From: Candidatus Omnitrophota bacterium
Lineage (GTDB): Bacteria; Omnitrophota; Gorgyraeia; Aquiviventales; Aquiviventaceae
Assembly: GCA_016193175.1 (NCBI GenBank)
Contig: JACPSR010000142.1
Coordinates: 54,332 to 118,331, forward strand
DNA length: 64,000 nt
Reading direction: 5' to 3'
Every line of letters begins with the position of its first letter. Within the stretch, counting starts at the first letter, position 1. The notes beneath the pieces were generated by a model. It was not told where the DNA came from, did not search any database, and was given only the letters and a program-made list of their open reading frames with translations. The translations under genes were made by a program, and so were the position numbers. Shown one piece after another: positions 1,009 to 60,017 of the stretch.

Positions 1009-1154
1009 GATCCCACGCCCTGCGACGGGCTGCCGCAGGCAGCCCCTGCAACGCGAGCAAGACGGACGGACATGGTGAGGCAAGCGTTCTTCAGTCTAGG
1101 TGGTGTTGCAGCGCCCCGCCCAAGGGCGGGGCAGCCGCAGGGCGTGGGATGATC
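1009..1154 (+). repeat. Palindromic junction element, copy 1 (146 bp)
   Basis: Left arm GATCCCACGCCCTG 1009-1022 and right arm CAGGGCGTGGGATGATC 1138-1154 (13-bp inverted repeat). Hairpins GGGCTGCC-GCA-GGCAGCCC 1027-1045 and CCCCGCCC-AA-GGGCGGGG 1114-1131. Inner stem CTGCAAC/GTTGCAG 1046-1052/1105-1111. The ATG of the next CDS (1149) lies in the right arm. Confidence 0.85.
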
Positions 1155-11418: not shown

Positions 11419-12918
11419 ATGGAACGTGCAGACCACCGAGGTGAAGGTACCCTCTCGCCCCGCGAGGTTGAGATGGTCAATGCCTACGGTCCCTATCATC
11501 ATGCCGTCTGGTCTGCTGGGGGTGTGGCGATCAGCCATGAAGAACGGCTCAGCGGCCGCGGGGAGTTCTTGGTCGATCGGATTCGCGAATCCCTCCTGAA
11601 GCGTTTCACACTCGATGAGATCAAGACGTTTTCCATTCTGGACGTGGGATGCTATGACGGGTGGATCCTGCAGCAACTCAGCGAGTTACCGTTTGCCCGG
11701 TTGGTCGGCATCGAGCCGCGAGAGAAAAATCTCATGAAAGGGCAGAAGGTGAGGGAACTCCTGCGCATTCCCTCGCGCGTTGAGTTCAAAGTCGGCGACC
11801 TTGATTCGCTGGGCGAGGAGACGTTCGACGTGGTCATCTGCGCTGGGTTGCTTCATCATGTCGAATCTACGCCGGCGGCGCTGCGCCGCCTGAGGGCTGT
11901 CTGCCGGCGGTTCCTGTTTATCGAGACGATCTGTCTCTCATCCCGGCATATCACGAAGGCGCTCCAGCGCGAGATTGAGATGAAGGATGTCGTGTACTTT
12001 TATAAGCGCAAAATCTGCGGGGTGACAGGCCAGAAATGGGAGTCATCCTATTCCGATGGGTCAACTACCAGGCTCTGTGTCGTGAACATCCCGTCCTTGG
12101 AATCGCTGACGATGTATCTGGATCTCTGTGGATTTGAAGGGGTGGACATCGTGACGAATCCCGCGGAGTACCGTGCAGCCGTCTGGAGGGATCAACGGGC
12201 CTGCAACGCCGTCTGTCTTTCCGCGGTCATCCGGGCCGAACAGCCGGAAGCCGTTTCTGAGGAAGAGTCCTGGGTGCAGGGGTATGAGAGGGGGCTGGCC
12301 AGAACGATCCTGAAGAAAGCGTACGTGCAACCGCTCTATGAGATCTGGTGTCTGCGAAAGAAACGGGTCCGTCTTCCCGTGTCCTGTTGGACCACCTGGC
12401 TGTATCTCCGTTCGCCAAACCGGTGGGCGGGCCTGTGTCATTCCCTCACGGCCATCTGGTTCAAGGATCGGTATGCGCTGGAGATCGTCAAAAATCTGAG
12501 GTTTAACCCGGAAGACAAGCTCCGTCTGGAATATGGCAAAGTCCTCTGCGACGAGGGCGATACCGAGGGGGCCATCGCGGTTCTGAAGGCCGTGGTGCAG
12601 ACGCTCAACGCGGATTGGTGGTCGGTGTATCGGTCCTTTGCGCTGCTCTCGGACGCCTACGTGCGGATCGGATCGCACGAAGAAGCACAGCGGTATGCCT
12701 CGTTGTGCGCCACCTGCAACCCGAAGTTTCCGCACATCGCTCAGGCGGCACGGGGATTTCCCGAGAGCGACCGACAGGACCACGATGATGGTGCGATGTC
12801 GATGATCCCACGCCCTGCTTCGGTCCCGCCAACGGCGGGACCGTGTTTGCCCACAGCGCATCAACCCATCTTGCAAACACACGCTGCCTGCGGCAGCGGG
12901 AAGCGGGGCGTGGGATGA
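11419..12918 (+). CDS. Class I SAM-dependent methyltransferase with C-terminal helical-repeat (TPR-like) region
   Basis: ILDVGCYDGWILQQL and FDVVICAGLLHHV motifs. The last ~38 codons (12805-12918) are encoded by junction element copy 2, so the true C-terminus is uncertain. An alternative start is at 11473. Confidence 0.6.
   Translation: MERADHRGEGTLSPREVEMVNAYGPYHHAVWSAGGVAISHEERLSGRGEFLVDRIRESLLKRFTLDEIKTFSILDVGCYDGWILQQLSELPFARLVGIEPREKNLMKGQKVRELLRIPSRVEFKVGDLDSLGEETFDVVICAGLLHHVESTPAALRRLRAVCRRFLFIETICLSSRHITKALQREIEMKDVVYFYKRKICGVTGQKWESSYSDGSTTRLCVVNIPSLESLTMYLDLCGFEGVDIVTNPAEYRAAVWRDQRACNAVCLSAVIRAEQPEAVSEEESWVQGYERGLARTILKKAYVQPLYEIWCLRKKRVRLPVSCWTTWLYLRSPNRWAGLCHSLTAIWFKDRYALEIVKNLRFNPEDKLRLEYGKVLCDEGDTEGAIAVLKAVVQTLNADWWSVYRSFALLSDAYVRIGSHEEAQRYASLCATCNPKFPHIAQAARGFPESDRQDHDDGAMSMIPRPASVPPTAGPCLPTAHQPILQTHAACGSGKRGVG
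12802..12918 (+). repeat. Palindromic junction element, copy 2 (117 bp, right arm slightly degenerate)
   Basis: Left arm ATGATCCCACGCCCTG 12802-12817 and right arm GGGGCGTGGGATGA 12905-12918. Hairpins GGTCCCGCC-AAC-GGCGGGACC 12822-12842 and CGCTGCC-TGC-GGCAGCG 12882-12898. Inner stem GTGTTTGC/GCAAACAC 12843-12850/12873-12880. Confidence 0.85.
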
Positions 12919-13843: not shown

Positions 13844-14005
13844 GATCCCACGCCCTGGCACCGGTAGCGCCTCAATGACCACGAGTGAATACGCGGACAC
13901 CGCAGGCTGGTTCGGCACTGCCGAGGCCGGCCAGCAGATGAGACCAACCGGAGGAGCCGGCCAGGGCCACGCGATGCGTGGCCCGTGCCAGGGCGTGGGA
14001 TGATC
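13844..14005 (+). repeat. Palindromic junction element, copy 3 (162 bp, longest)
   Basis: Arms extend to 15 bp: CCCACGCCCTGGCAC 13847-13861 and GTGCCAGGGCGTGGG 13985-13999. Hairpin GGGCCACGC-GAT-GCGTGGCCC 13964-13984. The downstream ATG at 14000 lies in the right arm. Confidence 0.85.
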
Positions 14006-15762: not shown

Positions 15763-16831
15763 TCGACCCGGGTTGCTTCGCCGGGTCCTGAGGTATTACG
15801 AGGCATGCCAATTTCCGCATCGGGTGCTCGTGGCGGACTCGAGTGACGCGCCTGCGGCGGAGGCGAACCGGCAGATCGTGGAGGCCGTCTCCCGCGCCAT
15901 GCCGGTCGAGTACCGGCGGTATGATTCCGCTCTTGAGGTGCCGATGAAACTGGCGGAAGCGCTCGAAGGGATTCAGTCGACGTACGCGGTGATCGGATCG
16001 GATGACGATTTTTTTGTTCCGAGTGCACTAGAACGAGGGGTGGCGTTTCTGGAATCGCATCCCGACTACGCCCTGGCGCATGGTGAGTCGGCGTATTTCG
16101 TCTTAGAGTCTGACAGGATCGTTTCCGGCCGGTGTGTGGGGGTGGGGCGATATCTGCAACGCACGATCGATCACGCGAGCGGCTCGGAGCGATTGGCGGC
16201 GCATCTCGCGCAATACACCACCACCTTTTATTCAGTCCATCGGACGGAGCAACTGCGCAGGAATTGGCGTCGAGTGGCTGCGCTGCCTCTCGATCATTTG
16301 TTCGACGAGTTGCTCCCGTCATGCCTGTCGCTCATCGAAGGCAAGAGTCAGAAACTCGACGAACTCTACATGGTGAGGCAAATCCACTCTGCGCAAACAG
16401 CACGGACACGGGGTTCCAGAGGCCTCGGTTGGGTGATGGGTCAACGCTGGTCAGAACACTACGCACGATTTCAGGATCTGCTGGCTGAGGAGCTGGTTGG
16501 CCAGGACAGGATCACCATGGAGGCCGCGAGGGAAGTTGCCAAACAGGCGTTCCGGCCCTATGTAGCCCGATATGTGGCCAAAGAAGTGGGGAAGTCGCGT
16601 CAGTTGCACGATAGCGTCGCCATCAGGATCGGGGCGCGAGTGCGCAGGGTGGCACGAGGGATGCCTCTGCTGCGTTGGGGCTGGCACCTGGCACGCGCGA
16701 TCAGGCCGATGTCGCGCACAGCCATCTCGCTTGAGGCGTTGCTTCGCCAGACCTCGCGCTATCACGAAGGATTTATGCCGATCTATCGAGCGGTGACGGC
16801 GCAGAACGGTCACGAGGTCGGTGCGTCATGA
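15734..16831 (+). CDS. Glycosyltransferase family 2-like protein (paralog 1 of a tandem pair)
   Basis: LILPTYNRPGLLRRVLRYY N-terminus (GT-A style) and VADSSD. C-terminal SRYHEGFMPIYRAVT is shared with the next gene. Confidence 0.5.
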   Translation: MLSLILPTYNRPGLLRRVLRYYEACQFPHRVLVADSSDAPAAEANRQIVEAVSRAMPVEYRRYDSALEVPMKLAEALEGIQSTYAVIGSDDDFFVPSALERGVAFLESHPDYALAHGESAYFVLESDRIVSGRCVGVGRYLQRTIDHASGSERLAAHLAQYTTTFYSVHRTEQLRRNWRRVAALPLDHLFDELLPSCLSLIEGKSQKLDELYMVRQIHSAQTARTRGSRGLGWVMGQRWSEHYARFQDLLAEELVGQDRITMEAAREVAKQAFRPYVARYVAKEVGKSRQLHDSVAIRIGARVRRVARGMPLLRWGWHLARAIRPMSRTAISLEALLRQTSRYHEGFMPIYRAVTAQNGHEVGAS

Positions 16832-16941
16832 TCCGCCCTAGCAGTCCCGCCGAAGGCGGGGTCGCCCGACGACCACAGGATTGCAACAGCGGGTGCGACG
16901 GCTCCACCACGGGTGGAGCCCTGCCAGGGCGTGGGATGATC
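16828..16941 (+). repeat. Palindromic junction element, copy 4 (114 bp, left arm carries a 2-nt deletion)
   Basis: Left arm ATGATCCGCCCT 16828-16839 (CA missing) and right arm CAGGGCGTGGGATGATC 16925-16941. Hairpins CCCGCC-GAA-GGCGGG 16846-16860 and GGCTCCACC-ACG-GGTGGAGCC 16900-16920. Upstream stop TGA 16829-16831 lies in the left arm; downstream ATG 16936 lies in the right arm. Confidence 0.85.
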
Positions 16942-20342: not shown

Positions 20343-21234
20343 GGCAGCCGAAGTTCGTATCGCCGCACCATCCATCGACGCTGGAGAACTCTATGATGTG
20401 GCGGCGGCTGGTGGGGAGTTCTGGTTCTACCAAGATCTCCGAGACAAGAGCCCTCGGTGGTATGATGAATGCTATTTCAACCCAGACTGCGTGTTGCTGT
20501 TTCCGGAGACCCGGCAGGTCTACTGGTTTGATCTCGACCACGTCTCGGTGGGGGCGGAGGCGACCGGTACCCGGCGGCACGTCTTGGGGAACCTCTGGAG
20601 GAAAAAATTCGCCTTCGCCTCCGATGGTAATCGACTGAGTATCCTGCCCTGTGCAGTGACAGGCCTGTGGAGGGGCAGGCCCACGGCGATGCGGCCGCAG
20701 GAGACAGAAGGCATCGCCTACGTGGTCGGCGATCGCTATCGGAGAGTATGCGAGATCAGGGCCGATGGCACGATGGATCCTCAAGAGCGACGCGAGCTCG
20801 ATGAGGCCTGGCGTCAGCACCGGAAGTTGAAGGTGGGGGTACCACTGGGCCGGAGCGTGCTCATCTATGGGATCCGGCTGGCGTTCCAGCAAAAGGGGGT
20901 CTACAGTTTTGCTTCGAAAACCGTGGTCATCCCATCCCCGCAGGCGCGGGCGTTCTCATGGGAGCAGGCATCACTTGGGAACATCTGCGTGGGATCGGAT
21001 GGCTCCTGTTCCATCTACCGTGAACAGACCTCGCGGCCGGGTCTCCTGCAGGTCCTCGCAACCTATGCTCCCACGGTGCTGCAACGGGCTAGCGGCATGT
21101 TGAACCGATCCCCGGATGGGTTCAAGGAATGGGTGCGGTCGCTGGCGCGGCCGATGCTTCGGTGTCTGCTCACATTTGAAGTCGACCATGCGCGGTGCCC
21201 GTTCACGATCTTTGTGAGGGAGGCCGATGGCTGA
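20332..21234 (+). CDS. Hypothetical protein (300 aa), no domain recognised
   Basis: Long ORF with balanced, protein-like composition. Its stop lies in an ATGGCTGA junction with the next gene. It sits between the two remnant-bearing junctions. Confidence 0.5.
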   Translation: MTPEAAEVRIAAPSIDAGELYDVAAAGGEFWFYQDLRDKSPRWYDECYFNPDCVLLFPETRQVYWFDLDHVSVGAEATGTRRHVLGNLWRKKFAFASDGNRLSILPCAVTGLWRGRPTAMRPQETEGIAYVVGDRYRRVCEIRADGTMDPQERRELDEAWRQHRKLKVGVPLGRSVLIYGIRLAFQQKGVYSFASKTVVIPSPQARAFSWEQASLGNICVGSDGSCSIYREQTSRPGLLQVLATYAPTVLQRASGMLNRSPDGFKEWVRSLARPMLRCLLTFEVDHARCPFTIFVREADG

Positions 21235-22231
21235 GTCGGACAACGCTCGGGTGCTGATCGTCGGGTGCGGCGAGCTTGGCAGTCGTCATCTGCAGGCCGT
21301 CGCGACGCTCCCAGACGTGGCGGAGATTGACGTCGTGGACTCACGCACCGAGGCGTTGAGGCAGGGACAGGAACGCCTCGTTGAGGTCACGGAGCGCAAC
21401 CCCCAAACGCGGTATCGTTGGCTATCCTCGTTGGAGGAGGCTGCTGGTGGGGGTCAACTGTGCATTGTGGCTACCCAGGCGGAAGGGCGCTGTCAGCTCG
21501 TGCGGGATGTGGTTGAGCGGCTAGGGTACGGAGGGTTTCTTTTGGAGAAGATCGTCGGCCAGTCCATCGAGGAAATTGAAGGTCTCGAAACGTTCTTGGG
21601 GGTGCGGGGGTGTACCGCCTGGGTCAACCTGAAAACACGGACGTACCCCATCTATCAGCACATCAAGCAGCGGCTGGAGCCTGGCGAGCCCATCCAATTG
21701 ACGTCGCTCGGCGGTAATCACGGTCTGGCCACGAACGGCGTGCATACGGCGGATTTGTTTGCGTTCTTCGATGGAACCGAGGAGATCGAGTTGGTTGGCT
21801 GCCGCGTTGATCCGATCCTGCATCCGTCAAAGCGGGGCGAGCGTCTCTTTGACCTCAGCGGAACCCTCCAAGGGGCCACGAAGAACGGGAGCCATTTTAT
21901 GCTGTCGTATGCGAAGGACCACAAGCAGTCGGAGCAGATCACGATTGCGGGTCGGCGCTATCGGTGCATCGTCGATCAGAGCGAGAGGAAGCGGTGGGTG
22001 GTCGAAAGCCACGTGGACACGGGTTGGGTGTGGCAGCCGGTCCCATCGACAGAGAACCTTCGGGTCAGCCTGATGAGCCGGCAATTTGTCCGGGAGATCC
22101 TCCATACCGGAACCTGCAGCCTGCCGACGCTCAAGGAGTCCTTGGTGGCGCACCGGTTCATCTTCGGGGCCATTCAGCCGGTGTTCAGTCAGCTGATGGG
22201 ACATGAGGTTGAGTTATGTCCGGTGACGTGA
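21227..22231 (+). CDS. Rossmann-fold oxidoreductase, Gfo/Idh/MocA-like
   Basis: RVLIVGCGELGSRHLQA N-terminal dinucleotide fold and FLLEKIVG (a variant of the EKP motif). Confidence 0.55.
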   Translation: MAESDNARVLIVGCGELGSRHLQAVATLPDVAEIDVVDSRTEALRQGQERLVEVTERNPQTRYRWLSSLEEAAGGGQLCIVATQAEGRCQLVRDVVERLGYGGFLLEKIVGQSIEEIEGLETFLGVRGCTAWVNLKTRTYPIYQHIKQRLEPGEPIQLTSLGGNHGLATNGVHTADLFAFFDGTEEIELVGCRVDPILHPSKRGERLFDLSGTLQGATKNGSHFMLSYAKDHKQSEQITIAGRRYRCIVDQSERKRWVVESHVDTGWVWQPVPSTENLRVSLMSRQFVREILHTGTCSLPTLKESLVAHRFIFGAIQPVFSQLMGHEVELCPVT

Positions 22232-23280
22232 CGGGGTCGGCGCTTGAGGCGCGCGCGCCGTGCTCTGCGTCGGAGCTTGCAGCCGCCATCGCCCGGGCGG
22301 ATGTGGCGGGTGCCGTTGCGACCGTGGTCGGAATCGGCACGATGGGCAAACACTTCGTGAGCGCGCTCCGGGCGCTCGGGGTGAAGCGTGTGCGCCTCTG
22401 CGCTCGTTCGCCAGGACCCTTGGAGTCGTTCCGAGCGTTCGAGGGGTTCGAAACGTTCGCCGGCGGCATTGAGCGGTTCGTCGGCCGACCGGCTCCTGGC
22501 GAGCTGGCGATTATCGCGACCCCGACGGCCTTGCTCATCCCGGCCGCCCGGCGGCTGGCGTCGCTGGGCTTCCGTCGGCTGCTGATTGAGAAACCTGTCT
22601 CGCTCTGGCCGGCGGAGATTGAGCGGCTGGCCGAGGAGCTTGAGGGCGAGGGGGTCGAGGCGTCCTGCGCCTACAACCGCGTCGCGTATCCCTCGTGTCA
22701 AGAAGTGCGGGCTCGTGTCGCCCGCGAGGGCGGGGCCACCTCGTGTACCTATACGTTCACCGAGCGGATCAAGCCGGATTGGCCGCAGACGTTTTCCGCG
22801 GAAGAGCTGGCGCGGTGGGGCATCGCCAACAGCTTGCATGTGATGAGCATGGCGCATGGGGTGATCGGCTGGCCCGCGTCCTGGTCGGCCCATCGTTCCG
22901 GCAGCCTGCCGTGGCACCCGACCGGAGCCGTCTTTATGGGGTCCGGCGTCTCGGATCGTGGGATCCCCTTTGGGTATCATGCGGATTGGGGTTCCACTGG
23001 CCGCTGGTCCGTCGAGGTCCATACCGCGGCCGCGTCGTATCGGTTGTGTCCCCTCGAACAAGTGTTTCGCCGGACATCGACGACGAGCGGCTGGACAGAC
23101 ATTCCGGTCGCGGCCTTCGCGCCGCAGGTGAAGGCGGGAATCACGGAGCAGGTGGCGGCGATGTTGTGTGAGGAGATCGGGGAGCGGGTGCCGCTGGTGT
23201 CGCTGCGCGCGGCCGCCTCGCTGTCGAGATACGCTGAAGCGGTCTTCGGCTATGACTCGGCGGAGACAGAGGCGCCATGA
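22216..23280 (+). CDS. Rossmann-fold oxidoreductase, Gfo/Idh/MocA-like
   Basis: VVGIGTMGKHFVSAL, IATPTALLIPAARRL and LLIEKPVS (EKP motif). Confidence 0.55.
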   Translation: MSGDVTGSALEARAPCSASELAAAIARADVAGAVATVVGIGTMGKHFVSALRALGVKRVRLCARSPGPLESFRAFEGFETFAGGIERFVGRPAPGELAIIATPTALLIPAARRLASLGFRRLLIEKPVSLWPAEIERLAEELEGEGVEASCAYNRVAYPSCQEVRARVAREGGATSCTYTFTERIKPDWPQTFSAEELARWGIANSLHVMSMAHGVIGWPASWSAHRSGSLPWHPTGAVFMGSGVSDRGIPFGYHADWGSTGRWSVEVHTAAASYRLCPLEQVFRRTSTTSGWTDIPVAAFAPQVKAGITEQVAAMLCEEIGERVPLVSLRAAASLSRYAEAVFGYDSAETEAP

Positions 23281-23325
23281 TCGTCGCAGTCGATCGCGCG
23301 GATCGATGAGGATGGAGACGCCAGT

Positions 23326-23413
23326 GCCAACCGTGTCATCCTTCGTTGAGACAGCGAGGCGGCTGTGCGCAGCCTATGAGGCGATGTACCTCGACGGTGG
23401 CGTGGCATGGTGA
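23326..23413 (+). pseudogene. C-terminal remnant of a paralog of CDS 18982-20076
   Basis: ARRLCAAYEAMYLDGGVAW* versus LDRLCADYEATYLDGGVRW*. DNA similarity runs from 23363, matching 20026 onward. It lies in otherwise non-coding 23281-23406. Confidence 0.55.
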
Positions 23414-24423
23414 TGGGCAGAGTGGCGACGCGGGTCGGGGTGCGGCGGGTGGCCGTCGTCGGAACGGGAAGCGCTGGCATGAGGCATCTGGATGTCCTAC
23501 GTCAACTCGACGGCGTTGAGTCGATCGCCGTGCCCAAGCGTCCCGAGCGTGCCGCAGAACTGGCCGGAGCTGGCCAGGCGGCGTTGCGCGATTTGCGCGA
23601 GGTGGTGGCGTCCGGTGCCACGCGCGCGATCATCGCGACGGATACCGGCTGTCACCTTGAAGATGGGCTTGCAGCGCTGGGGCAGGGGTTGGACCTGCTC
23701 ATCGAAAAGCCGCTGGCGACCAACGCCACCGACGCGGCACGGCTTCGCGCGGCGGCTGTCCACGCCGGGCGAAGACTATTCGTTGGTTGCGTCTTACGGT
23801 TTTCGGAATCCCTCAACGCCTTCCACTCGTTGCTGAAGCAGATCGGCCGGGTGCACTCGGTGCGCATCGAATGCCAGTCATATCTGCCGGACTGGCGGCC
23901 CGCCCGCCCCTATCAGGAGTCCTATGTGGCGCGTCGCGTAGAAGGCGGGGTCTTGTTAGATCTCATTCATGAGATCGACTACGCGGGGTGGATCTTCGGG
24001 TGGCCCAAGGCGGTTCAGGCGAGGCTACGCAACGTGGGGCGCTTGAGCATCGCGGAAGAGGAAACCGTTGATCTGCTGTGGGAAACGCCCATGGCCGGCT
24101 GCGTCTCGATGAGCTTGGATTATCTGACCCGCCCCCCACGCCGCGTGACGCGGGCCTGCGGGGAACGGGGGACCGTGGAGTGGGATGGCATCGCGGGGAC
24201 GGCGAGCTTGGCCCTTGCGGGACAAGCGCCGATGGTCGTCCGCTCTTCACAGACACGCGAGGAGATGTTCCTCGCCCAGGTGCGCGCGTTCCTCGAAGCG
24301 TGTGGTGACGGGCGCGATCCGCGACTGGCCACAGCTGAGGATGGCGTGAGGGCTCTGGCGGTCTGTGACGCAGCACGCCGGTCCTCTCAGAGCCGGCAGG
24401 AGGAGCCGGTGGTGATCCTATGA
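23407..24423 (+). CDS. Gfo/Idh/MocA family oxidoreductase (PtmF-like position in a nonulosonic acid cluster)
   Basis: RVAVVGTGSAGMRHL, LLIEKPLA (EKP motif) and a C-terminal alpha/beta domain. Directly upstream of neuA. Confidence 0.75.
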   Translation: MVMGRVATRVGVRRVAVVGTGSAGMRHLDVLRQLDGVESIAVPKRPERAAELAGAGQAALRDLREVVASGATRAIIATDTGCHLEDGLAALGQGLDLLIEKPLATNATDAARLRAAAVHAGRRLFVGCVLRFSESLNAFHSLLKQIGRVHSVRIECQSYLPDWRPARPYQESYVARRVEGGVLLDLIHEIDYAGWIFGWPKAVQARLRNVGRLSIAEEETVDLLWETPMAGCVSMSLDYLTRPPRRVTRACGERGTVEWDGIAGTASLALAGQAPMVVRSSQTREEMFLAQVRAFLEACGDGRDPRLATAEDGVRALAVCDAARRSSQSRQEEPVVIL

Positions 24424-28961: not shown

Positions 28962-30505
28962 TTCTGGTAACGATTGTCAGACCGCCCGTGGTGTTCTCCC
29001 GGCGGTCCTATAGCGTCGCCATCGTGCCCCCGCTTGGGCCCGCCTATTTAGCGGCGGCGCTGCGAACAGCAGGGCATCAGGTGAGGATCGTTGATGCCGT
29101 GGGGGGACGGATTTCGCACATCGGGGCCACCGCACGGCCGAACCTCCTCTATCAGGGGCTCTCGATCGACGAGATGATCGCCGGCATGGACCCCGAGACG
29201 CAGCTCATGGCCGTGTCGGCCATGTTCTCACAGGATTGGCCGCATGTCGAAGTCTTGATCGCGAAGATTGCGCAGCGGTTTCCAGAGGTCCCGATCGTGG
29301 TCGGAGGAGAACATGCCACCGCCGCGTGGGACTACATCTTGGACACCTCGCCAGCGATCACCTGTGTCGGTCTGGGCGAGGGGGAAGAGACCATTTGTGA
29401 TCTGGCCAGGTGGGTCGAACACGGAGGCGACCTGAGCGCCATCCCGGGCATCGCCTACCGGCAAGCCGGGCGTCCCGTCATGACGTCGCCGCGCAAACGG
29501 ATCATGGCCGTCGATGACATTCCCCCTCCGGCCTGGAATTTGGTTCCGCTCGAGGCCTATCTGGACGGCGGCTACGGCCACGGGGTCGATTTGGGACGGA
29601 GCATGCCGATCTTGGCCACACGCGGATGCCCATTCCAGTGCACGTTCTGCTCAAACCCGGCGATGTGGACGACCCGCTATGTGATGCGGGATGTCGGCAA
29701 AGTCGTCGATGAAATTGCGCGCTATCTGCGCGAGTATCGCGCGACGAACGTCGATTTTTACGACCTCACCGCCATCATCAGGAAAGATTGGATCATGAAG
29801 TTCTGCGACGAAATTCTGCACAGGCGGCTGACACTCACCTGGCAGCTTCCGAGCGGAACGCGCAGCGAAGCCCTTGACGCCGAAGCGCTGCGCAAAATGT
29901 TTGAGGCTGGATGCCGCAACCTGACCTATGCCCCTGAGAGCGGGTCCGAGCGGACATTGAAGGCGATCAAGAAAGAAGTGCGCTTGCCAAAGATGGTCAG
30001 ATCGATCAAAGCGGCGAAGCGCGCGGGCATTCATCTCAAGTGTAACCTGATCATCGGCTTTCCGAAGGAACGGCGCCGTGACCTCTTTCGCACGATCTGG
30101 TTTGCCTTGAAGATGGCCTGGATGGGCGTCGATGACGCCCCGCTCTTTCTGTTTTCGCCCTACCCCGGAAGCGAGTTGTATCACTATCTGCGCTCAACCG
30201 GAGCGATCCAGAAGATGGACAACGACTATTTTGAGTCGCTGCTCTGCTTTATGGATCTGTCCAAGTCGAGCCGCTATTGTGAGCGCATCGGGCCTCTGGA
30301 GCTCAACATCTACCGATGTGTCGGGATGTCCCTCTTCTATGTGCTGAGCTACCTGCGGCACCCCGCACGAATCGTGCGGACGATCCGGAACCTCTGGCAC
30401 AGCGAGTCAGCCACCGTGTTTGAGCAACGGCTCATTGAGATGAAGCGACGAGTGTCCATGGCGATGGCAGGCCGGTCGGTCGAATCGGCGGTGAATTCTC
30501 GATGA
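28958..30505 (+). CDS. B12-binding domain radical SAM enzyme (class B)
   Basis: N-terminal cobalamin-binding-like Rossmann region and radical SAM cluster motif RGCPFQCTFCSNP. Confidence 0.8.
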   Translation: MILVTIVRPPVVFSRRSYSVAIVPPLGPAYLAAALRTAGHQVRIVDAVGGRISHIGATARPNLLYQGLSIDEMIAGMDPETQLMAVSAMFSQDWPHVEVLIAKIAQRFPEVPIVVGGEHATAAWDYILDTSPAITCVGLGEGEETICDLARWVEHGGDLSAIPGIAYRQAGRPVMTSPRKRIMAVDDIPPPAWNLVPLEAYLDGGYGHGVDLGRSMPILATRGCPFQCTFCSNPAMWTTRYVMRDVGKVVDEIARYLREYRATNVDFYDLTAIIRKDWIMKFCDEILHRRLTLTWQLPSGTRSEALDAEALRKMFEAGCRNLTYAPESGSERTLKAIKKEVRLPKMVRSIKAAKRAGIHLKCNLIIGFPKERRRDLFRTIWFALKMAWMGVDDAPLFLFSPYPGSELYHYLRSTGAIQKMDNDYFESLLCFMDLSKSSRYCERIGPLELNIYRCVGMSLFYVLSYLRHPARIVRTIRNLWHSESATVFEQRLIEMKRRVSMAMAGRSVESAVNSR

Positions 30506-32025
30506 CGCGAGGAGGAGGTTGGCGGCTCCCGCTGCTGCTCTATCTGGCGGGCCTGCTCCATTGGATCGGCTTCCTGTATCTCGATGTCACGCCCTCCGGC
30601 CAGGAGCGGGAACTGGTGTCCATAGCGCTCCGGAGTCCTGAGACGCTCTTGAAGCGTCCGAACTTCGGGATGGAAGACGGCGTCTACATCGGCGACGTCT
30701 GGTTCGTCTATGAGCGCATGCTCACGGCGCTCCAGCAGGCGGTTCGCAGCCGCCAGATCCCCTACCATCTGCCTGGCCTGAGCGGCTATGAGATGATGCC
30801 AACCACCGCCTCGCCGGTCGGCGATCGGCTCTTCGGTTTTCCCAATGGCTGGCCCTGGTCGCCGGAGGCGCTCCTCTTGGCCGTCCTGGATCTTCCAACC
30901 TTCGTCATCGTGACGTGGCTCATCATGTACTCGGTGGGATTTGCGGGGTGCCTCTTGATCCGGCGCCAGTACAGTCTGGGGCCGATGGCCTTCACGTTCC
31001 TGGCGGTGCTGTTCCATCTGAACGGTTGGATCACCACCCACATGACGACCAAGATGCCCGATAACACCGGCTACTATCTGAGCCCGTATCTCGTGCTGCT
31101 CCTGCTGAGGGCCGGGGAAGTGGCCCCCACGGATCGCTACGCGCAGCGGCGTCTCGGGTTATGGATCGGGTTGGTGATGGCGCTGATGTGGTGGCAGGGG
31201 TCGTGCCATCCCTTCATCCACTGGCTCACCATGCTGGGCTTCTGGGGCATTGTGAATTGGAGGAAATGGCGGGTCACGGTGGTGAGTGTGGTGAGCGCGT
31301 TTGCCCTGGCGGCGTTTCGCGTGATTCCGCCTGCGCTCAGTTGGGGCATGAAGCACCGCTATCATGTGGACAATCCCGCGATCATGGGGTTCTGGTCATT
31401 CGATCAATACATCGACGCGCTCGCGGTGTGCCACCCGTTCATCCCCGACGGGGGGTGGGAGCAATTCAATTGCTACGTCAGCGTGTTTGGCTTATGGGCG
31501 ATTCTCTATCTCGCGTTCTGGGCACCATGGAACGGCTCGAGGTGGGTGCGCCTGCGTCCCTGGCAGTCCTTGCTCATTCCCTCCGTGATCTTGGCGGTGA
31601 TGTCGTTCCGTCACATGAAGAGCGTGCTCATTCCGAATTGGATCCCCCTCTTTAACGCCGAGGCCTACACAGGACGATACATGATGATCCCCCTGGTCGT
31701 GTGGATCATTGTCGCGAGTATCAACCTCCAGGGCGCGGTCGAGGCGTTCTGGTCGCAGCGGCGGCTGCGATGGCTCATGGTCAGCGGGCTTGGCGTGATC
31801 GCGGCGTCCTTGCTGAACCATTCGCGCTTGTGGCGCATCTGGATGGCGACAAAGTTTGCGCACTGGGGTGGCTATGGGCCCACGCTGCCTGCGCGGTTGG
31901 CGAACGACATGACCGACCGCCTGTACATCAACGCGGTCGACCTGAGTCTGGGCATCAGCCTGGTCGCCTTGGTCGTGGTGATCGCCTTGTTGGTCGTGCC
32001 GCGCAAGCGACAGGGCGTGGGATGA
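30502..32025 (+). CDS. Polytopic membrane protein of unknown function (polymerase, ligase or GT-C candidate)
   Basis: 507 aa with many hydrophobic helices. ATGA junctions on both sides. The last codons QGVG* coincide with a solo junction-element arm. Confidence 0.55.
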   Translation: MTRGGGWRLPLLLYLAGLLHWIGFLYLDVTPSGQERELVSIALRSPETLLKRPNFGMEDGVYIGDVWFVYERMLTALQQAVRSRQIPYHLPGLSGYEMMPTTASPVGDRLFGFPNGWPWSPEALLLAVLDLPTFVIVTWLIMYSVGFAGCLLIRRQYSLGPMAFTFLAVLFHLNGWITTHMTTKMPDNTGYYLSPYLVLLLLRAGEVAPTDRYAQRRLGLWIGLVMALMWWQGSCHPFIHWLTMLGFWGIVNWRKWRVTVVSVVSAFALAAFRVIPPALSWGMKHRYHVDNPAIMGFWSFDQYIDALAVCHPFIPDGGWEQFNCYVSVFGLWAILYLAFWAPWNGSRWVRLRPWQSLLIPSVILAVMSFRHMKSVLIPNWIPLFNAEAYTGRYMMIPLVVWIIVASINLQGAVEAFWSQRRLRWLMVSGLGVIAASLLNHSRLWRIWMATKFAHWGGYGPTLPARLANDMTDRLYINAVDLSLGISLVALVVVIALLVVPRKRQGVG

Positions 32026-34812: not shown

Positions 34813-35889
34813 ATGTACACGGACCTGACCACGTTGTGCATCGGACGAGCGAGTTCGTTACGAGCCGCCATAGCCCAGATGGACCGCAGCCGATTTGGCA
34901 TCGTGCTGGTGACCGACGACCAGCGACGCCTGGTGGGCACGATCACCGATGGGGATATCCGCCGCGCCATTTTGGCGAACGTGGATCTTGAGCAATCGGT
35001 GAACGTGCTCCTGGCGCGAAAGGCAACAACTCGCTTTGCGAAGCCCATCACGGCCGCGGCGGGCTCCGATCCCAATCTCTACCTGGCACTCCTGAAACAG
35101 CACAACATCCTTCACCTTCCGCTGATCGACGATGAGCAGCACGTCGTGGGGATGGTGACGAGGGATGAATTTCTGCCCAACGAGGTGCTGCCGCTCCACG
35201 CAGTGGTCATGGCGGGAGGGCTCGGTAGTCGTCTGCACCCCCTCACCGAAGAGCTCCCGAAACCGATGCTGCCGATCGGCAATCGTCCATTGCTCGAGAT
35301 CATCATCGCGCAGCTACGAGAGGCCGGCATTCGTCGCGTCCAGGTCACGACGCACCACAAGCCGGAGAAGATTGAGGAGCATTTTGGCGATGGGAAGGAC
35401 TTCGGGATCAACCTCTCCTATGTCGCAGAAGACCGACCGTTAGGAACAGCGGGGGCCCTGGGATTGCTCGGCGTTCCCAAGGAGACGACGTTGGTCATGA
35501 ACGGCGATATCCTGACGCAGGTGGATTTCCGGGCGATGCTGGTCTACCACCGGGAGTACGGGGCGGACCTCACGATGGCAGTGCGCCAGTACGACCTCAA
35601 GGTGCCCTACGGCGTGGTCGAGTGCGAGGATTCGGTGGTCCGTTCCCTCAGCGAAAAACCCACGGTGGGATTTTTTGTCAACGCGGGCATTTATCTGCTG
35701 GAGCCTCCCGTCTACCAATTCATCCCGAACGGCCAACCGTTCGACATGACGGAGTTGATCCAGTGCCTGCTCAAGGCGGGGAGGATGGTCGTCAGCTTCC
35801 CGGTCCGGGAATACTGGCTTGATATCGGAGAGCACGCGGGGTATGAGCGGGCAGAGCAAGACGTTCGCAACGAGAAGGTGCGGGTATGA
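34813..35889 (+). CDS. CBS-domain sugar-phosphate nucleotidyltransferase (PtmE/HddC-like)
   Basis: Tandem CBS region (LVGTITDGDIRR, VVGMVTRDEF), then NTP-transferase motif AVVMAGGLGSRLHPLTEELPKPMLPI. Confidence 0.8.
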   Translation: MYTDLTTLCIGRASSLRAAIAQMDRSRFGIVLVTDDQRRLVGTITDGDIRRAILANVDLEQSVNVLLARKATTRFAKPITAAAGSDPNLYLALLKQHNILHLPLIDDEQHVVGMVTRDEFLPNEVLPLHAVVMAGGLGSRLHPLTEELPKPMLPIGNRPLLEIIIAQLREAGIRRVQVTTHHKPEKIEEHFGDGKDFGINLSYVAEDRPLGTAGALGLLGVPKETTLVMNGDILTQVDFRAMLVYHREYGADLTMAVRQYDLKVPYGVVECEDSVVRSLSEKPTVGFFVNAGIYLLEPPVYQFIPNGQPFDMTELIQCLLKAGRMVVSFPVREYWLDIGEHAGYERAEQDVRNEKVRV

Positions 35890-36002
35890 TCCCACGCCCT
35901 AGCTGGGCTCCGCCTAAAGGCGGAGCCGCGAAACGGTGCCCCGTGTTTCTGTCATTGATGTTTCGCCCCACCAATAGGCGGGGCAGCCAGGGCGTGGGAT
36001 GA
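35886..36002 (+). repeat. Palindromic junction element, copy 5 (117 bp)
   Basis: Left arm ATGATCCCACGCCCT 35886-35900 and right arm CAGGGCGTGGGATGA 35988-36002. Hairpins GGCTCCGCC-TAAA-GGCGGAGCC 35906-35927 and CCCCACC-AATA-GGCGGGG 35966-35983. Inner stem CGAAAC/GTTTCG 35929-35934/35960-35965. Upstream TGA 35887-35889 and downstream ATG 35999 lie in the arms. Confidence 0.9.
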
Positions 36003-40316: not shown

Positions 40317-40943
40317 ATGGGGAACGCGCACAGACCGGACATCCGTCGAGCCGTGTTTCTCGATCGGGATGGCACCATTGCCCAGTACCGGGAGTACTGT
40401 TGTCGCCCGCAGGATTTTCGATTGCTCCCAGGGGTGGGCCACGCCATTCGGACATTGAATCACGCGGGGCTGGCGGTGATCGTCATGACCAACCAATCGG
40501 CGATTGCGCGAGGCTGGTTGACGGGGGACGTCTTGGAGCAGATTCACCGAAAAATGCGCCGTGCCCTCAGTCGCGTGGGGGCGCGGATCGACGCCATCTA
40601 CGTCTGTCCGCACCATCCGGACGACGGATGTGCGTGTCGAAAACCTGGGATCGCGATGCTCCAGCAGGCTGCAAAGGACTTTGAGCTGTCCTTGGCGTCC
40701 TCCTATGTGGTGGGAGACCGGATGCTGGATGTGCTCTCGGGGCGCGCCGCGGGAAGTCAGACTATCCTTGTCCGCTCAGGCCACAGACTGGAACCGACCA
40801 ACGGCGTTACGCCTGACCACGAGGCGCAGGACCTGAGCGAGGCCGTGGCGTGGATCCTTCAACAGGAGGGGCTGCAAGCGGGACGGGGCAGGCCTCTTGC
40901 CGCGGCGCGAGGTCCGAGCGACCATGCGGGAGTGCAGAGATGA
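40317..40943 (+). CDS. gmhB: D-glycero-D-manno-heptose 1,7-bisphosphate phosphatase (HAD-IIIA)
   Basis: AVFLDRDGTI, VMTNQSAIARG and Zn-binding CPHHPDDGCACRKP. Confidence 0.85.
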   Translation: MGNAHRPDIRRAVFLDRDGTIAQYREYCCRPQDFRLLPGVGHAIRTLNHAGLAVIVMTNQSAIARGWLTGDVLEQIHRKMRRALSRVGARIDAIYVCPHHPDDGCACRKPGIAMLQQAAKDFELSLASSYVVGDRMLDVLSGRAAGSQTILVRSGHRLEPTNGVTPDHEAQDLSEAVAWILQQEGLQAGRGRPLAAARGPSDHAGVQR

Positions 40944-42607
40944 CATTGGACACGCGAGTGGAGACTCCTCCAACCTTGGCAGACGAACCCTCTCATCCTG
41001 ACGCTGAAGGATCCACCCAGACATCTGCAAGGGCGCTCGAGCAACTGGAAGCTGCCTTGGACGCGGTGCGTCGTCAGTGCCCCTGGCTTCCGGTGTTCGC
41101 AATTCGATGGATGCACTTAAAGCATCCCGTGCACCCCGTGCAGCTGCTCCTCCTGCGCGAACATCTGGGTGTTAGTGGAGAGACACCCGATCGTACCGAG
41201 CGACCTCGGTGGGTATTCACCCAGTGGATTCGCCCAAGACTCCTGAGGCGACTCGGACAATGTGTGATCTATGCGATCTACGTCAGTTGCCGGCTGGTCA
41301 GGCTTCAGATTGCGCTGCGTCGTCAGGTGCGGGCCCTCAGGCGACAGCCGTTTGAGGTGCTGATCAAAACGTGCTGCTTTGAAGCAGAGCGGCCGGCGGA
41401 TGGGAGCGATTTTTATTTCGGTGATTTGCAGCAACGATTGGTCAGGCGTGGCGTGCGAACACTGCTCTTGTCCGGGAATGTGCGGCGTGGCAGTTGGACG
41501 GCGTTTGGCCGGGCCCATCTCGCCGCGCCGCCGCTGGCACGGCTGCCGGAGTTAGCGCTGCTGTCTCCACTGGCGCCACTTCGTCTGATGCTGGCGCAAG
41601 TTCGGGCCGCCATCCGGTTGCGTCGCAGGGTGCGGGAGACCGACGATCCGTTGATCAAACACATCACCCTGCTCGCCAGCCACGATTGTCTGGCGCCGGA
41701 TACCACGCGGGCTGGACTGTATTGCTGGGTCATGAAGCGTGCCGTTCAGACGTGGCGTCCTCGGGCCTTCGTGACCCTCTACGAGGGACACGCCTGGGAG
41801 GCGTGTGCGCGATGGGGCGTGAAGGCTCACGATCCGTCCTGTCAAACCGTGGGGTATCAACATACCGCCATCTTTCCGGAATCGCTGTCGTTAACGTCTC
41901 CATCGAAGGCGCCGACAGACCGTCTCGTGCCTGACACCATTCTGGCCTTGGGGCAGATTCCGTTGGACTTCATGGCGTCTGGACACGCAGATCATCACGT
42001 CCGTCTGGTGCGGTTTGGGAGTTTTCGCTATCGCCATGCGAATGTCGATCGACCGGCGGATCGAACCCGTCGTGTCATCCTCGTCGTTCCCGAAGGGTTT
42101 GCGTCGGAGGTCAAGGTGCTCTTTGAGTTCGCCGTGGCCTGCGCCAAGCGGTTGCCCCGCTATACCTTTGTGCTCCGATGCCATCCAGAAGTGCCCATGG
42201 CCGTGGCGGTCCGATTGATGCCAGGGGCACTGACCAGCCAACCGAACATTGAGCTTTCGGACCGTCGTCTGATCGAGGAGGATTTTGCCCGCTCGTCAGC
42301 CGTGTTGTATCGCGGATCCTCGACGGTCCTCTATGCGGTCCTTCACGGCCTGTTGCCGCTGTACGTCCATATGCCCACCCTGCTGGATCGTGACCCGCTG
42401 TACCGCATGCCGGCCTGGCGCCGACGCTGTGTCAGTCCTGATCATCTCGCGACGCAGTTGGCGTGGCATGAGCAAGCCCCGATGGAGCGCTTGGAAGAGG
42501 AATGGGCGCGGGCGGTGCGGTATGTCACGGATTATACCGGCCCGGTGACCGATGAGCAGATCGACGCGTGGCTTACCACGGTCGGTCTCAACGGGAGCGC
42601 GCGCTGA
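40940..42607 (+). CDS. Large hypothetical protein (555 aa), possible GT-B-like surface carbohydrate biosynthesis protein
   Basis: No firm motif. C-terminal SAVLYRGSSTVLYAVLHGLLPLYVH resembles the GT-B C-terminal region. Its stop TGA 42605-42607 opens junction element copy 6. Confidence 0.45.
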   Translation: MTLDTRVETPPTLADEPSHPDAEGSTQTSARALEQLEAALDAVRRQCPWLPVFAIRWMHLKHPVHPVQLLLLREHLGVSGETPDRTERPRWVFTQWIRPRLLRRLGQCVIYAIYVSCRLVRLQIALRRQVRALRRQPFEVLIKTCCFEAERPADGSDFYFGDLQQRLVRRGVRTLLLSGNVRRGSWTAFGRAHLAAPPLARLPELALLSPLAPLRLMLAQVRAAIRLRRRVRETDDPLIKHITLLASHDCLAPDTTRAGLYCWVMKRAVQTWRPRAFVTLYEGHAWEACARWGVKAHDPSCQTVGYQHTAIFPESLSLTSPSKAPTDRLVPDTILALGQIPLDFMASGHADHHVRLVRFGSFRYRHANVDRPADRTRRVILVVPEGFASEVKVLFEFAVACAKRLPRYTFVLRCHPEVPMAVAVRLMPGALTSQPNIELSDRRLIEEDFARSSAVLYRGSSTVLYAVLHGLLPLYVHMPTLLDRDPLYRMPAWRRRCVSPDHLATQLAWHEQAPMERLEEEWARAVRYVTDYTGPVTDEQIDAWLTTVGLNGSAR

Positions 42608-42719
42608 TCCCACGCCCTCGCAGCCTCGCCTTCGGCGAGGTCGCCAACGAGACGAAATGTCAAGAGGGGCTGGCGACGGCTCCGCCTACGGCGGAGCCCT
42701 GCCAGGGCGTGGGATGATG
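42605..42719 (+). repeat. Palindromic junction element, copy 6 (115 bp)
   Basis: Left arm TGATCCCACGCCCT 42605-42618 and right arm CAGGGCGTGGGATGATG 42703-42719. Hairpins CCTCGCC-TTC-GGCGAGG 42624-42640 and GGCTCCGCC-TAC-GGCGGAGCC 42678-42698. Inner stem GTCGCCA/TGGCGAC 42640-42646/42671-42677. Confidence 0.9.
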
Positions 42720-43739
42720 CGGTGTCTCCTGTTTGGCTTTGGCTACATGGGCAAGATCCGCTATCAGGTCCTGCGTCAACATCCCCTAGTGCGCGGCATC
42801 ACCATCGTGGATCACGGCGTGGATCCATCAACCGTCGGGCTCGATGGGCTCCTCCTTCCTGCAGGGGCCCCCATTCCGTGGGACGAAACCGACGCCGTCT
42901 TCGTCTGTACCCCGAACAATGTCACACCGGACCTGTGCGTGGAAGGGCTGCGTCGGTGTCGCCGGGTGTTTTGTGAAAAGCCGCCAGGACGAAACTGGGA
43001 GGATTTCTGTCGGATCGCCGACATGGCGGCCGCGGTCCCTGACCACACGCTGGTGTTCGGGTTCAACCACCGGTTGCACCCGTCTGTGCAGGCGGCCAAG
43101 TCGCTCATCGGCGAGGGCGGCCTGGGCGAGGTGCTGTATCTGAAGGGGACCTACGGCAAATCAGGCGGCATCCGGTATCGTGAGAGCTGGCGCACCAATC
43201 CGGACATCGCAGGCGGGGGCATTTTGCTCGATCAGGGCATCCATATGCTGGATTTGTTTCACCTCTTCCTTGGGCCGCTTACCGTGGTCGATGCCGTCCT
43301 GGTGGATTCCTTCTGGGGAACGGGATTGGAAGACAACGCCTTCATCCTGCTCCGCTCCGAGCAGGGAGTGCCGGTGTTCCTGCATTCTTCCGCGACGTTC
43401 TGGAAACACACGTTCCGCATCGAGGTCGGCTGTCGCAATGGCTACTTGGTGGCCAGTGGGTTGTTGTCACAGACCGGCAGCTACGGCCGTGAGCAGCTCG
43501 TCATCGGCAAGCGACAGTTCGAAGATGAGGCGCTGGCGCTGGGCAACCCCCGCGAGGAAATCATCCACTTCGACCGTGATGAGTCATGGGACAAAGAGGT
43601 CAACGAATTTCTTCTTGCCGCCCATGAAGGCCGACCGGCCACGCATGGCACGCTCGAGGATGCCCGACGGGTCATGCAGGTCATTCGGGATGTCTACGCC
43701 TTGGCCGATCGCCACGTCGTGAAACGGGCCGTCCCATGA
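42714..43739 (+). CDS. Gfo/Idh/MocA family oxidoreductase
   Basis: LLFGFGYMGKIRYQVL N-terminal fold, VFCEKPPG (EKP motif) and a C-terminal domain. Start is the ATG in the repeat arm. Confidence 0.8.
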   Translation: MMRCLLFGFGYMGKIRYQVLRQHPLVRGITIVDHGVDPSTVGLDGLLLPAGAPIPWDETDAVFVCTPNNVTPDLCVEGLRRCRRVFCEKPPGRNWEDFCRIADMAAAVPDHTLVFGFNHRLHPSVQAAKSLIGEGGLGEVLYLKGTYGKSGGIRYRESWRTNPDIAGGGILLDQGIHMLDLFHLFLGPLTVVDAVLVDSFWGTGLEDNAFILLRSEQGVPVFLHSSATFWKHTFRIEVGCRNGYLVASGLLSQTGSYGREQLVIGKRQFEDEALALGNPREEIIHFDRDESWDKEVNEFLLAAHEGRPATHGTLEDARRVMQVIRDVYALADRHVVKRAVP

Positions 43740-59076: not shown

Positions 59077-60017
59077 GCCGTGGGGTCGTGTACGTCGCGC
59101 TGCAGCAGTTCTGCGAGTTCGAGCCAGTCCCGAAGCAGCTCTTGCGCGAGGCCGGATGGGAGGTTCGGGTCAACGAGCTGGGTCGTCGCTTAACATCAGA
59201 GGACTTGATCCACGTACTTCGTGACGCCGAGGCGGTCGTGGCGGGTGTCGAGCCCTACGATGCCGCCGTCCTCGAGGCGCTGCCCCGCCTGCAATGCATC
59301 AGCCGATGCGGTGTGGGGACGGATGCCATCGATCTCGATGTGGCGCGTCGGAAAGGCATTGCCGTGTACACAACGCCTGACGAAGTCGTCGAGCCCGTCG
59401 CGCAGATGACAGTGGCCATGATCCTGGCCTTGGCGAGGAATCTACCCCAATACCTCGCAGCCAGCCGACAGGGCGCGTGGGTCAAGCGTCCCGGATGGCT
59501 GCTGTCTGAGTGGACGGTGGGCCTGGTAGGGTTTGGCCGGATTGGCAGGACGGTGGAACGGTATCTCCGTGTTTTTGGGCCACGTGTCCTCGTGTCAGAT
59601 CCATTCGTCGCGCCCCACGAGGTTCCGGAGACGGCCCACTGGTGTCCGCTTCCTCGGCTATTAGCTGAGGCTGATGTGGTGTCGCTCCACGCGAACCGTC
59701 CTCGACAAGAAGGTGTGCTGATGGGCCGCGCAGAGTTGGGGCAGATGAAGGCCGGCAGTCGACTCATCAACACCTCGCGGGGATACCTCGTTGATGAGCA
59801 GGCCCTCGAGGCGGCGCTCCGATCCGGGCATCTGGCGGCAGCCGCATTCGATGTGTTTGAGCAGGAACCTTATACAGGGCCGTTGACGAGGTTCCCACAC
59901 GTGCTCTGCACGCCGCATGTCGCCTCGCTGACGCGCGCCTCACGGGCTGCCATGGAGCGGCGGGCCGTCCAGCACCTCCTGGAGCACTTTACGCGGATGC
60001 CAGCGCCAAGCCGATGA
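59073..60017 (+). CDS. D-isomer-specific 2-hydroxyacid dehydrogenase (phosphoglycerate dehydrogenase-like)
   Basis: NAD site VGLVGFGRIGRTVERYL, NTSRG, and catalytic-region TPHVAS. Confidence 0.85.
   Translation: MSRGVVYVALQQFCEFEPVPKQLLREAGWEVRVNELGRRLTSEDLIHVLRDAEAVVAGVEPYDAAVLEALPRLQCISRCGVGTDAIDLDVARRKGIAVYTTPDEVVEPVAQMTVAMILALARNLPQYLAASRQGAWVKRPGWLLSEWTVGLVGFGRIGRTVERYLRVFGPRVLVSDPFVAPHEVPETAHWCPLPRLLAEADVVSLHANRPRQEGVLMGRAELGQMKAGSRLINTSRGYLVDEQALEAALRSGHLAAAAFDVFEQEPYTGPLTRFPHVLCTPHVASLTRASRAAMERRAVQHLLEHFTRMPAPSR

Follow-up and report, generated by a model that had tools for sequence, protein, structure and literature searches.

Introduction

Correia elements carry 26-bp repeats, duplicate TA and create promoters or integration host factor (IHF) sites, and no link of theirs with start or stop codons is known. 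[quoted passage not shown] In the account of Supply et al. 1997 given in PMC12548453, an open reading frame (ORF) of the MIRU is coupled to the downstream gene by a −4 overlap, which is thought to soften the effect of the insertion on expression. Synthetic bicistronic designs use a short leader ORF whose end lies on the target gene's start codon and which brings ribosomes to that gene regardless of structure (PMC12548453), and a stable structure right after a stop codon, named ribosome termination structure (RTS), has been proposed to insulate against re-initiation (PMC7518266). [quoted passage not shown] Here, we analyse a palindromic repeat lying exactly between two genes in a stretch of 64,000 nucleotides from a Candidatus Omnitrophota bacterium (assembly GCA_016193175.1, contig JACPSR010000142.1, positions 54,332 to 118,331 of the forward strand), which as a whole is called the window. 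This repeat, the sixth full copy in the window (copy 6), probably belongs to a family of small, non-autonomous, MITE-like palindromic elements that insert at (A)TGA, rebuild both codons and usually carry a relay frame passing ribosomes on to the downstream gene. Its members were encountered almost exclusively in GC-rich Candidatus Omnitrophota.

Arms, junction and predicted fold of copy 6

The junction occupied by copy 6 comprises the following features.

40940..42607, + strand: upstream gene, 555 aa, no Pfam family
42604..42717, + strand: putative relay reading frame CTG-ATC-CCA...GGA-TGA, 37 codons, stop-free
42605..42607, + strand: left copy of the putatively duplicated target TGA, the stop codon of the upstream 555-aa gene
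42608..42714, + strand: copy 6, element proper (TCCCACGCCCT...AGGGCGTGGGA, 107 nt), with edges inferred from filled/empty pairs at other family sites
42625..42639, + strand: predicted 5' GC-rich hairpin CTCGCC-TTC-GGCGAG
42640..42677, + strand: predicted central hairpin with a 7-bp stem (GTCGCCA/TGGCGAC) and a variable loop
42678..42698, + strand: predicted 3' GC-rich hairpin GGCTCCGCC-TAC-GGCGGAGCC
42714..42716, + strand: ATG made of the element's terminal A and the TG of the duplication, an extra Met codon (homologues have a single Met before (R/N/K)CL)
42715..42717, + strand: right-hand TGA of the duplication, which closes the relay frame and overlaps both ATGs
42717..43739, + strand: downstream Gfo/Idh/MocA oxidoreductase gene, 340 aa, native start ATG 42717

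A reading made from the letters alone (the sequence-only reading) had described 12-nt complementary arms, the left one on the last base of the upstream stop and the right one over the AU of the AUG. The sequence is exactly so. ATCCCACGCCCT (42607-42618) is the exact reverse complement of AGGGCGTGGGAT (42704-42715); the left arm begins at the final base of TGA 42605-42607, and the right arm ends on the AU of ATG 42714-42716. The next two bases, GA, give ATGATG (42714-42719), in which a second ATG (42717-42719) directly follows the first. Each of these arms is one base longer than the element proper, the additional base coming from the duplicated TGA.

The 115-nt RNA of copy 6 has a predicted fold of −72.5 kcal/mol, whereas shuffled sequences reach −46.5 ± 3.5 (z = −7.5). 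Its start region has a P(unpaired) of 0.12-0.16. For 19 ordinary starts at ATGA junctions of the window the mean is 0.395 ± 0.088, and the start region of copy 6 is about 3 standard deviations less accessible than these. A Shine-Dalgarno sequence at usable spacing is absent, the closest GGAG lying 18 nt upstream of the ATG. The proposals that the AUG is sequestered and that no GGAGG stands at normal spacing both agree with these values.

We assign the native start to ATG 42717, and regard ATG 42714 as made by the element, because homologues begin M(R/N/K)CL with a single Met; more than 100 of them point to a 340-aa oxidoreductase starting at ATG 42717. The sequence indicates that copy 6 inserted at a native TGATG (−1) junction, hence the CTG at its left side. 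In public gene calls, the Gfo/Idh/MocA gene begins within the element, at ATG 42657 (360 aa), and likewise in the loci L001, L002, L005 and L006. The element family is probably a source of systematic start-site errors in the annotation of Omnitrophota metagenome-assembled genomes (MAGs), in which copies other than copy 6 create spurious N- or C-terminal extensions.

Family size and distribution

Six full copies are present in the window, each on the strand of the genes, together with one solo right arm. The two-arm pattern occurs at five places in the window and at none in 100 shuffles. The ends of the copies are invariant while their interiors are only ~50% identical, and all six share a predicted architecture in which an outer stem encloses GC-rich hairpins with variable loops. 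Terminal repeats are perfect over 11-12 nt, TCCCACGCCCT(G)/(C)AGGGCGTGGGA, in five of the six, and exact in 54 of the 62 copies of a relaxed search. The right arm over the start codon, which the sequence-only reading took to be the same in every full copy, is thus identical in five; copy 2 has GGGGCGTGGGAT, and its right ATG is not a gene start.

Across Omnitrophota MAGs and metagenomes, we counted at least 152 unique copies, 103-169 nt long, which reduce to 132 distinct sites after clustering by their flanks. Among species-representative genomes, 50 stretches contain the exact two-arm pattern, nearly all of them from GC-rich Candidatus Omnitrophota MAGs of groundwater and sediment. Metagenomes added at least 120 stretches, and viral contigs none. 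A single MAG (JACPTX) contains at least 17 loci. The genes of the window also occur on contigs of the NCBI MAG GCA_016187645.1 and of several Logan assemblies, with an identical element in each. The pattern was also seen once in a Thermodesulfobacteriota MAG (L031, 6848-6978) and once in a Limnocylindrales MAG (L048, 2737-2887), where the flanks differ (TCA...TGA and CC...CA, respectively). These two matches could be divergent relatives, horizontal transfers or binning errors.

Rfam gave no match for the whole window at the gathering score, and for the locus at E <= 10 it returned only matches with E > 2. ARAGORN found no tRNA or tmRNA, and promoter and terminator scans detected neither in the element.

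Target site and mobility

Empty-site queries were built from the flanks of every copy and searched against all collected loci. Four clean filled/empty pairs were retrieved (L044 vs window 60014-60017, L022 vs L104, L145 vs L126 and L089 vs L044). The empty site reads N-ATGA-N and the filled one N-ATGA[TCCCAC...GTGGGATGA]N. These pairs show that the element is mobile and that it lands on (A)TGA. The window itself provides one of the empty sites.

60014..60017, + strand: empty target site ATGA, orthologue of the filled site in MAG contig JAUYPJ010000037.1 (L044)

This empty site reads ...CCAAGCCG-ATGA-TCAACAC..., and its filled counterpart in JAUYPJ010000037.1, with flanks 91% identical to those of the window, reads ...CCAACTCG-ATGA-[TCCCACGCCCT...AGGGCGTGGG-ATGA]-CGACCAAC.... 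The L044 copy (1264-1375) is 96% identical to window copy 5, which occupies another junction, a similarity that points to fairly recent movement.

Some copies stand in tandem and share the joint GGGATGATCCC (L026 and L083). Three are arranged head to tail in L026 (233-555), where copies of 105 and 108 nt are off the usual 3n+1 register, and two in L083 (342-~600). Most simply, these data would be described by perfect inverted repeats of 11-12 nt at the ends, TCCCACGCCCT(G), and a duplication of the 3 bp TGA, although an element ending in TGA and inserting 3' of TGA would yield an identical sequence. The right junction is always ATGA, whatever precedes the left TGA, because the last base of the element is A. 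Two other duplications, AT at a TGATGA target and GAT, were considered and ruled out, given the single ATGA of the empty sites and the GGGATGATCCC tandem joints.

The 555-aa gene and the Gfo/Idh/MocA gene are adjacent in relatives (79-91% protein identity), where their overlap is 4 or 13 nt and the element is absent; the closest empty orthologue of the copy 6 site (P0001, 91% identity) has an ATGA overlap. An integron-like cassette boundary was ruled out on this account, as the genes flanking copy 6 stand in the same order in relatives without the element. The element is MITE-like in its properties: it is short and without transposase coding, has terminal inverted repeats and a target duplication, and is represented by filled and empty sites and by dispersed copies.

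Placement at stop and start codons

The left codon is ATG at 105 of the 132 sites, GTG at 15, CTG at 7 and TTG at 5, and every right end reads ATGA. The right ATG begins an ORF of at least 100 codons at 100 of 118 untruncated sites (85%), compared with 25% for ATGA motifs in general in the same DNA, and an ORF of at least 100 codons ends with the left TGA at 77 of 120 sites (64%), against 11% in the background. ATGATG at the right-hand end, as in copy 6, is found at 11 of 27 sites with a left codon other than ATG and at 6 of 105 with ATG (Fisher p = 2e-5), an excess that TGA duplication predicts if the former were native TGATG (−1) junctions and the latter ATGA junctions.

About one quarter of the sites have no abutting upstream gene. 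At such sites, as at copy 1, the element landed on the start codon of a gene with its own ribosome-binding site; no Shine-Dalgarno enrichment was detected upstream of the left ATG at sites without an upstream gene. Within the window, the proposal that a stop abuts the left arm only in copies 4 to 6 holds for functional stops, whereas a TGA triplet abuts the arm in five of the six copies. The accompanying picture of a cluster in which most other junctions are ATGA overlaps was overstated: −4 overlaps of the NTGA type account for 26 of 66 long-ORF stops on the + strand, which makes them the commonest type but not a majority.

Reading frame across the element

The arm-to-arm length equals 1 modulo 3 at 118 of the 132 sites (binomial p = 5e-41), and the same is true of 18 of the 28 distinct lengths, which run from 103 to 169 nt (p = 1e-3). 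Given a length of 3n+1, the frame of the left ATG, which overlaps the upstream TGA, crosses the element and ends on the right TGA, which overlaps the rebuilt ATG. This frame is free of stops in 106 of 118 copies (90%), compared with 53 of 118 (45%) when the element is flipped, a control that leaves composition and structure unchanged. The resulting relay mini-ORF has the form MIPRP...QGVG-stop and a 4-nt overlap with each neighbouring gene. It is the only ORF of the element, with 35-57 codons in a non-conserved frame. Lengths within clusters mostly differ by multiples of three (106/109/127, 109/112, 130/133/136/145, 142/145 and 151/154). In the 106-nt cluster, insertions or deletions of one nucleotide in one loop are offset in another, and the peptide frame switches (RRRNVPP vs KAKRPA) while the total length and the exit frame are kept.

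An open frame, usually bounded by an ATG and a stop, could also be expected if the short ORF encoded a functional small protein family (MIPRP...QGVG), but this seems extremely improbable. The interior peptide is not conserved and changes its internal frame through the compensated frameshifts; its conserved termini are translated terminal repeats; and its variation shows no third-position excess, the entropy being 1.52, 1.61 and 1.61 bits at codon positions 1, 2 and 3, respectively. The relay peptides match no Pfam family. A functional relay peptide was rejected on the negative results for codon periodicity and Pfam. Judged by its sequence patterns, what the family conserves is read-through ending on the right-hand ATGA, not the product itself, and there appears to be clear selection for continuous translation across the insertion. 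To this extent, the earlier idea that coupling is preserved across the insertion is supported family-wide, but its signature is a relay ORF kept in frame and not the unmasking of a stem.

The start of copy 6 and the outer stem

The relay frame of copy 6 has CTG where a canonical start would usually stand, and its closest in-frame start is GTG 42568, within the upstream gene. CTG as the left codon is shared by copy 6 with six other sites (5% of sites). A relay therefore cannot be assumed at copy 6, which leaves room for models in which the stem is melted. According to the sequence-only reading, the outer stem would be a coupling switch: a ribosome terminating at UGA 42605-42607 would melt the left arm and free the AUG. 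A direct hand-over might be part of such a switch, stop and start being together at the base of the helix. The geometry agrees with this description, the element lying exactly between stop and start; the start is poorly accessible by the same margin of about 3 standard deviations and has no usable Shine-Dalgarno sequence; and another route to it is needed where the relay frame lacks a canonical start. A ribosome whose A site holds the stop codon extends over some 12 nt downstream, or most of the left arm, which counts in favour of the switch.

We nevertheless consider the switch unlikely. It leaves unexplained the 3n+1 length rule, the stop-free frame and the presence of a left ATG at 80% of the sites, and the stems pair equally well on the antisense and the mRNA strands. 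When 42590-42619 was forced to be single-stranded, in imitation of a terminating ribosome, the right arm was predicted to re-pair with downstream coding sequence and was not freed (P(unpaired) 0.06, vs 0.12 without the ribosome), although this is a weak test, being an equilibrium calculation on a GC-rich RNA that is silent on kinetics. Moreover, in the published model, stable structures after a stop insulate against re-initiation (PMC7518266). A narrower version concerns start-less sites such as copy 6, where the paired repeats set the upstream UGA beside the downstream AUG at the foot of a −72 kcal/mol structure. There, a terminating ribosome might cross the helix without translating or fully melting the 107-nt interior, a route that we regard as very doubtful. 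If true, it would be a bacterial analogue of ribosome shunting or bypassing, brought by a mobile element.

Conservation of the stems

In the nine copies closest to copy 6, 98.2% of the cells in four helices are paired, with compensatory double changes at three pairs, while the loops vary freely. G-U pairs amount to 251 of 7099 on the sense strand and 314 of 7175 on the antisense strand, whose fold is slightly more stable. Since there is no sense-strand G-U bias, selection on the stems at the RNA level is not demonstrated, and the structure fits a DNA palindrome recognised in transposition equally well. The subfamily of copy 6 is the flipped form of a common 109-nt subfamily.

The absence of a strand bias, together with conserved ends, a variable structured interior, retained stems and free loops, would also be consistent with a recombination or structural site at the level of DNA, either an attC-like cassette boundary or a repeat similar to repetitive extragenic palindromic (REP) sequences and their hairpin-forming doublets (REPINs) with a domesticated tyrosine transposase. 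In that case, the coding-frame features would be incidental. The orientation is mostly fixed relative to the genes and a classical transposase partner was not found, both of which agree with it. Against this, the 3n+1 rule and stop avoidance are unexpected for a purely DNA-level site, and the attC core GTTRRRY is absent. Searches for a Y1 transposase with tblastn, using IS200 and IS608 TnpA sequences as queries, gave no match in the loci; this is a weak test, as REP-associated tyrosine transposases (RAYTs) are single-copy and probably lie outside the sampled DNA. Overall, we hold a DNA-level site to be very unlikely.

The duplex of the terminal repeats might alternatively serve in mRNA processing, being cut by RNase III or another RNase so as to split a transcript of more than 60 kb into segments or to tune their stability. 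RNase III substrates typically have ~20 bp and are longer than the outer stem of copy 6, which has 12 perfect bp, or 16-17 bp with one mismatch, before a multi-branch junction; the Correia repeats measure 26 bp. A cut within the stem would strip the downstream start codon of its context, and processing does not explain the frame rule. The elements do lie within a long co-directional gene cluster and would be co-transcribed, and there is a precedent, as RNase III cuts Correia elements where their terminal repeats pair, and enterobacterial repetitive intergenic consensus (ERIC) elements alter mRNA decay (PMC10969869). Such processing, which is compatible with a mobile element carrying a relay frame, appears quite unlikely here.

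Other copies and neighbouring genes in the window

The remaining copies in the window illustrate the variants of the junction.

1010..1150, + strand: copy 1, L=141; GTG 1007 at its left, with GGGAGG at 996-1001 followed by 7 nt; relay frame broken by the stop codon 1076-1078; gene 1149-2162 begins with the right ATG 1149
12805..12916, + strand: copy 2, L=112; the upstream ORF 11419-12918 reads through it and ends at the right-end TGA
13845..14001, + strand: copy 3, L=157; relay ORF from ATG 13830 to TGA 14003, overlapping both neighbouring genes
16831..16937, + strand: copy 4, L=107, its left arm shortened by a 3-nt deletion; left ATG 16828 in frame with right ATG 16936
35889..36000, + strand: copy 5, L=112, canonical, with ATGA at both sides; relay ORF 35886-36002
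32011..32025, + strand: solo right-arm remnant CAGGGCGTGGGATGA at an ATGA junction

The relay ORF is complete in copies 3 and 5, interrupted in copy 1, fused to the upstream gene in copy 2 and to the downstream gene in copy 4, and CTG-started in copy 6. In copy 3, the in-frame ATG 13830 overlaps the upstream stop. Copy 2, with the right arm GGGGCGTGGGAT, has a right ATG that opens only 7 codons, and the next gene starts at ATG 12941, preceded by GAAGGGA (12924-12930); the upstream ORF gains a C-terminal extension derived from the element. In the region of copy 4 (16828-18096), the downstream glycosyltransferase-like ORF may have a 36-residue N-terminal extension of the same origin.

The solo arm (32011-32025) has no left arm nearby, and the upstream ORF 30502-32025 ends in ...RKRQGVG-stop, the same tail as that of the relay ORFs. 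It resembles what is left of a copy after loss of its 5' portion, or after in-frame fusion of that portion with the upstream gene.

The window (1-64000) forms one co-directional cluster of genes that modify sugars or polysaccharides, with a positive GC skew throughout and no tRNA. The genes include those for epimerases, aminotransferases, glycosyltransferases, radical SAM enzymes, methyltransferases, a carbamoyltransferase and SxtJ and DUF5989 proteins. Other direct repeats were observed at 18077-18217 / 21215-21355 and 20023-20081 / 23360-23418 (76% and 81% identity, respectively), which resemble the ends of paralogous genes. A separate pair of 24-nt inverted repeats (23202-23373), 92% complementary and 124 nt apart, spans the gap before the gene at 23407.

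Discussion

We propose that insertion at (A)TGA duplicates the TGA, in such a way that the left end would retain NTGA and the terminal A of the element would make the right ATGA. Surviving copies would sit at stop/start overlaps or at start codons because the upstream stop is kept and the downstream start is rebuilt. In most copies, the old ATG would now open a short frame through the whole element. A ribosome finishing the upstream gene, or starting at the old ribosome-binding site, could translate this relay frame, melting the structure on its way, then terminate on the rebuilt ATGA and re-initiate on the downstream gene, and coupling would survive the insertion. The outer stem, made of the paired terminal repeats, would bury the downstream start and make independent initiation there unlikely; downstream expression would then depend tightly on the relay. 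We infer relay translation and termination-reinitiation at the right ATGA because −4 overlaps behave in this way (PMC6728339, PMC12548453) and because of the MIRU precedent (PMC12548453). The host organisms are uncultured.

Several observations weigh against a mobile family with a relay frame. The length is out of frame at 14 of the 132 sites, including window copies 1 and 4, and a nearby alternative start is not consistently present at the seven CTG sites, copy 6 included. A precedes TGA at 80% of the sites, although any TGA stop should tolerate the insertion. The orientation of the interior is biased 113:15 (113 of 128 clustered copies), and selection for an open frame accounts for only part of this bias. 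Copies were gathered by their exact arms, and the conservation of these is thus partly a matter of ascertainment, though the relaxed search added only 8 of its 62 copies. Concerning the means of movement, no transposase was identified near the copies within ~1 Mb of flanking DNA, and a search for autonomous elements with the same ends returned no arm pair more than 200 nt apart in ~1 Mb of flanking loci; both tests are weak.

If the proposal is correct, a selfish element has seemingly evolved to be transparent to translation, in that it is codon-precise, lands on the ATGA overlap, the prevailing type in gene-dense operons, rebuilds both codons, keeps a 3n+1 length and supplies a throw-away relay frame. 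The only comparable idea is the decades-old and little-tested mycobacterial MIRU proposal; its recurrence in a family that is independent, built differently and hosted by an uncultured phylum suggests that the strategy is general. The more than 130 sites, whether in-frame, out-of-frame, start-less or fused, make up a natural set for studying re-initiation through very stable RNA structure.

Comparison with known systems

MIRUs share with the Omnitrophota family a relay ORF with −4 overlaps, placement at junctions and the occurrence of tandem copies (L026 and L083). Unlike them, the Omnitrophota family has perfect 11-12-nt inverted ends, a fold of ~−70 to −100 kcal/mol burying the rebuilt start, and a TGA duplication. 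MIRUs are direct repeats of Mycobacterium, often in tandem, and the distinction from the Omnitrophota family is one of architecture and host; a relationship in sequence is not expected. Correia and ERIC elements resemble it as non-autonomous elements of 100-160 nt with terminal inverted repeats and a short target duplication, dispersed and co-transcribed, that form a long hairpin. In contrast with the Correia type, the Omnitrophota element combines 12-nt arms with a TGA duplication, an (A)TGA target, a rebuilt ATGA, the 3n+1 rule and a stop-free relay frame.

Rickettsia palindromic elements (RPEs) are likewise palindromic and mobile, have a length and frame compatible with translation and are tolerated when inserted in coding DNA. 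However, RPEs lie inside genes and are translated with the host protein, whereas the Omnitrophota element stands between genes as a mini-cistron, with exceptions such as the fused copies 2 and 4. REPs and REPINs are GC-rich palindromes just downstream of genes, with the same conserved stems, variable loops and symmetry of both strands, but REPs are extragenic and have neither codon-level placement nor a frame rule. The RTS is similar in being a structure immediately after a stop that governs re-initiation; it is generic, local and non-repeated, whereas the present element is a mobile repeat with a relay ORF. A MITE-type structure and a relay idea of the MIRU type are thus known, and the Omnitrophota family is of interest mainly for targeting with codon precision, for its 3n+1 lengths and for the range of in-frame, out-of-frame, start-less and fused variants that it offers.

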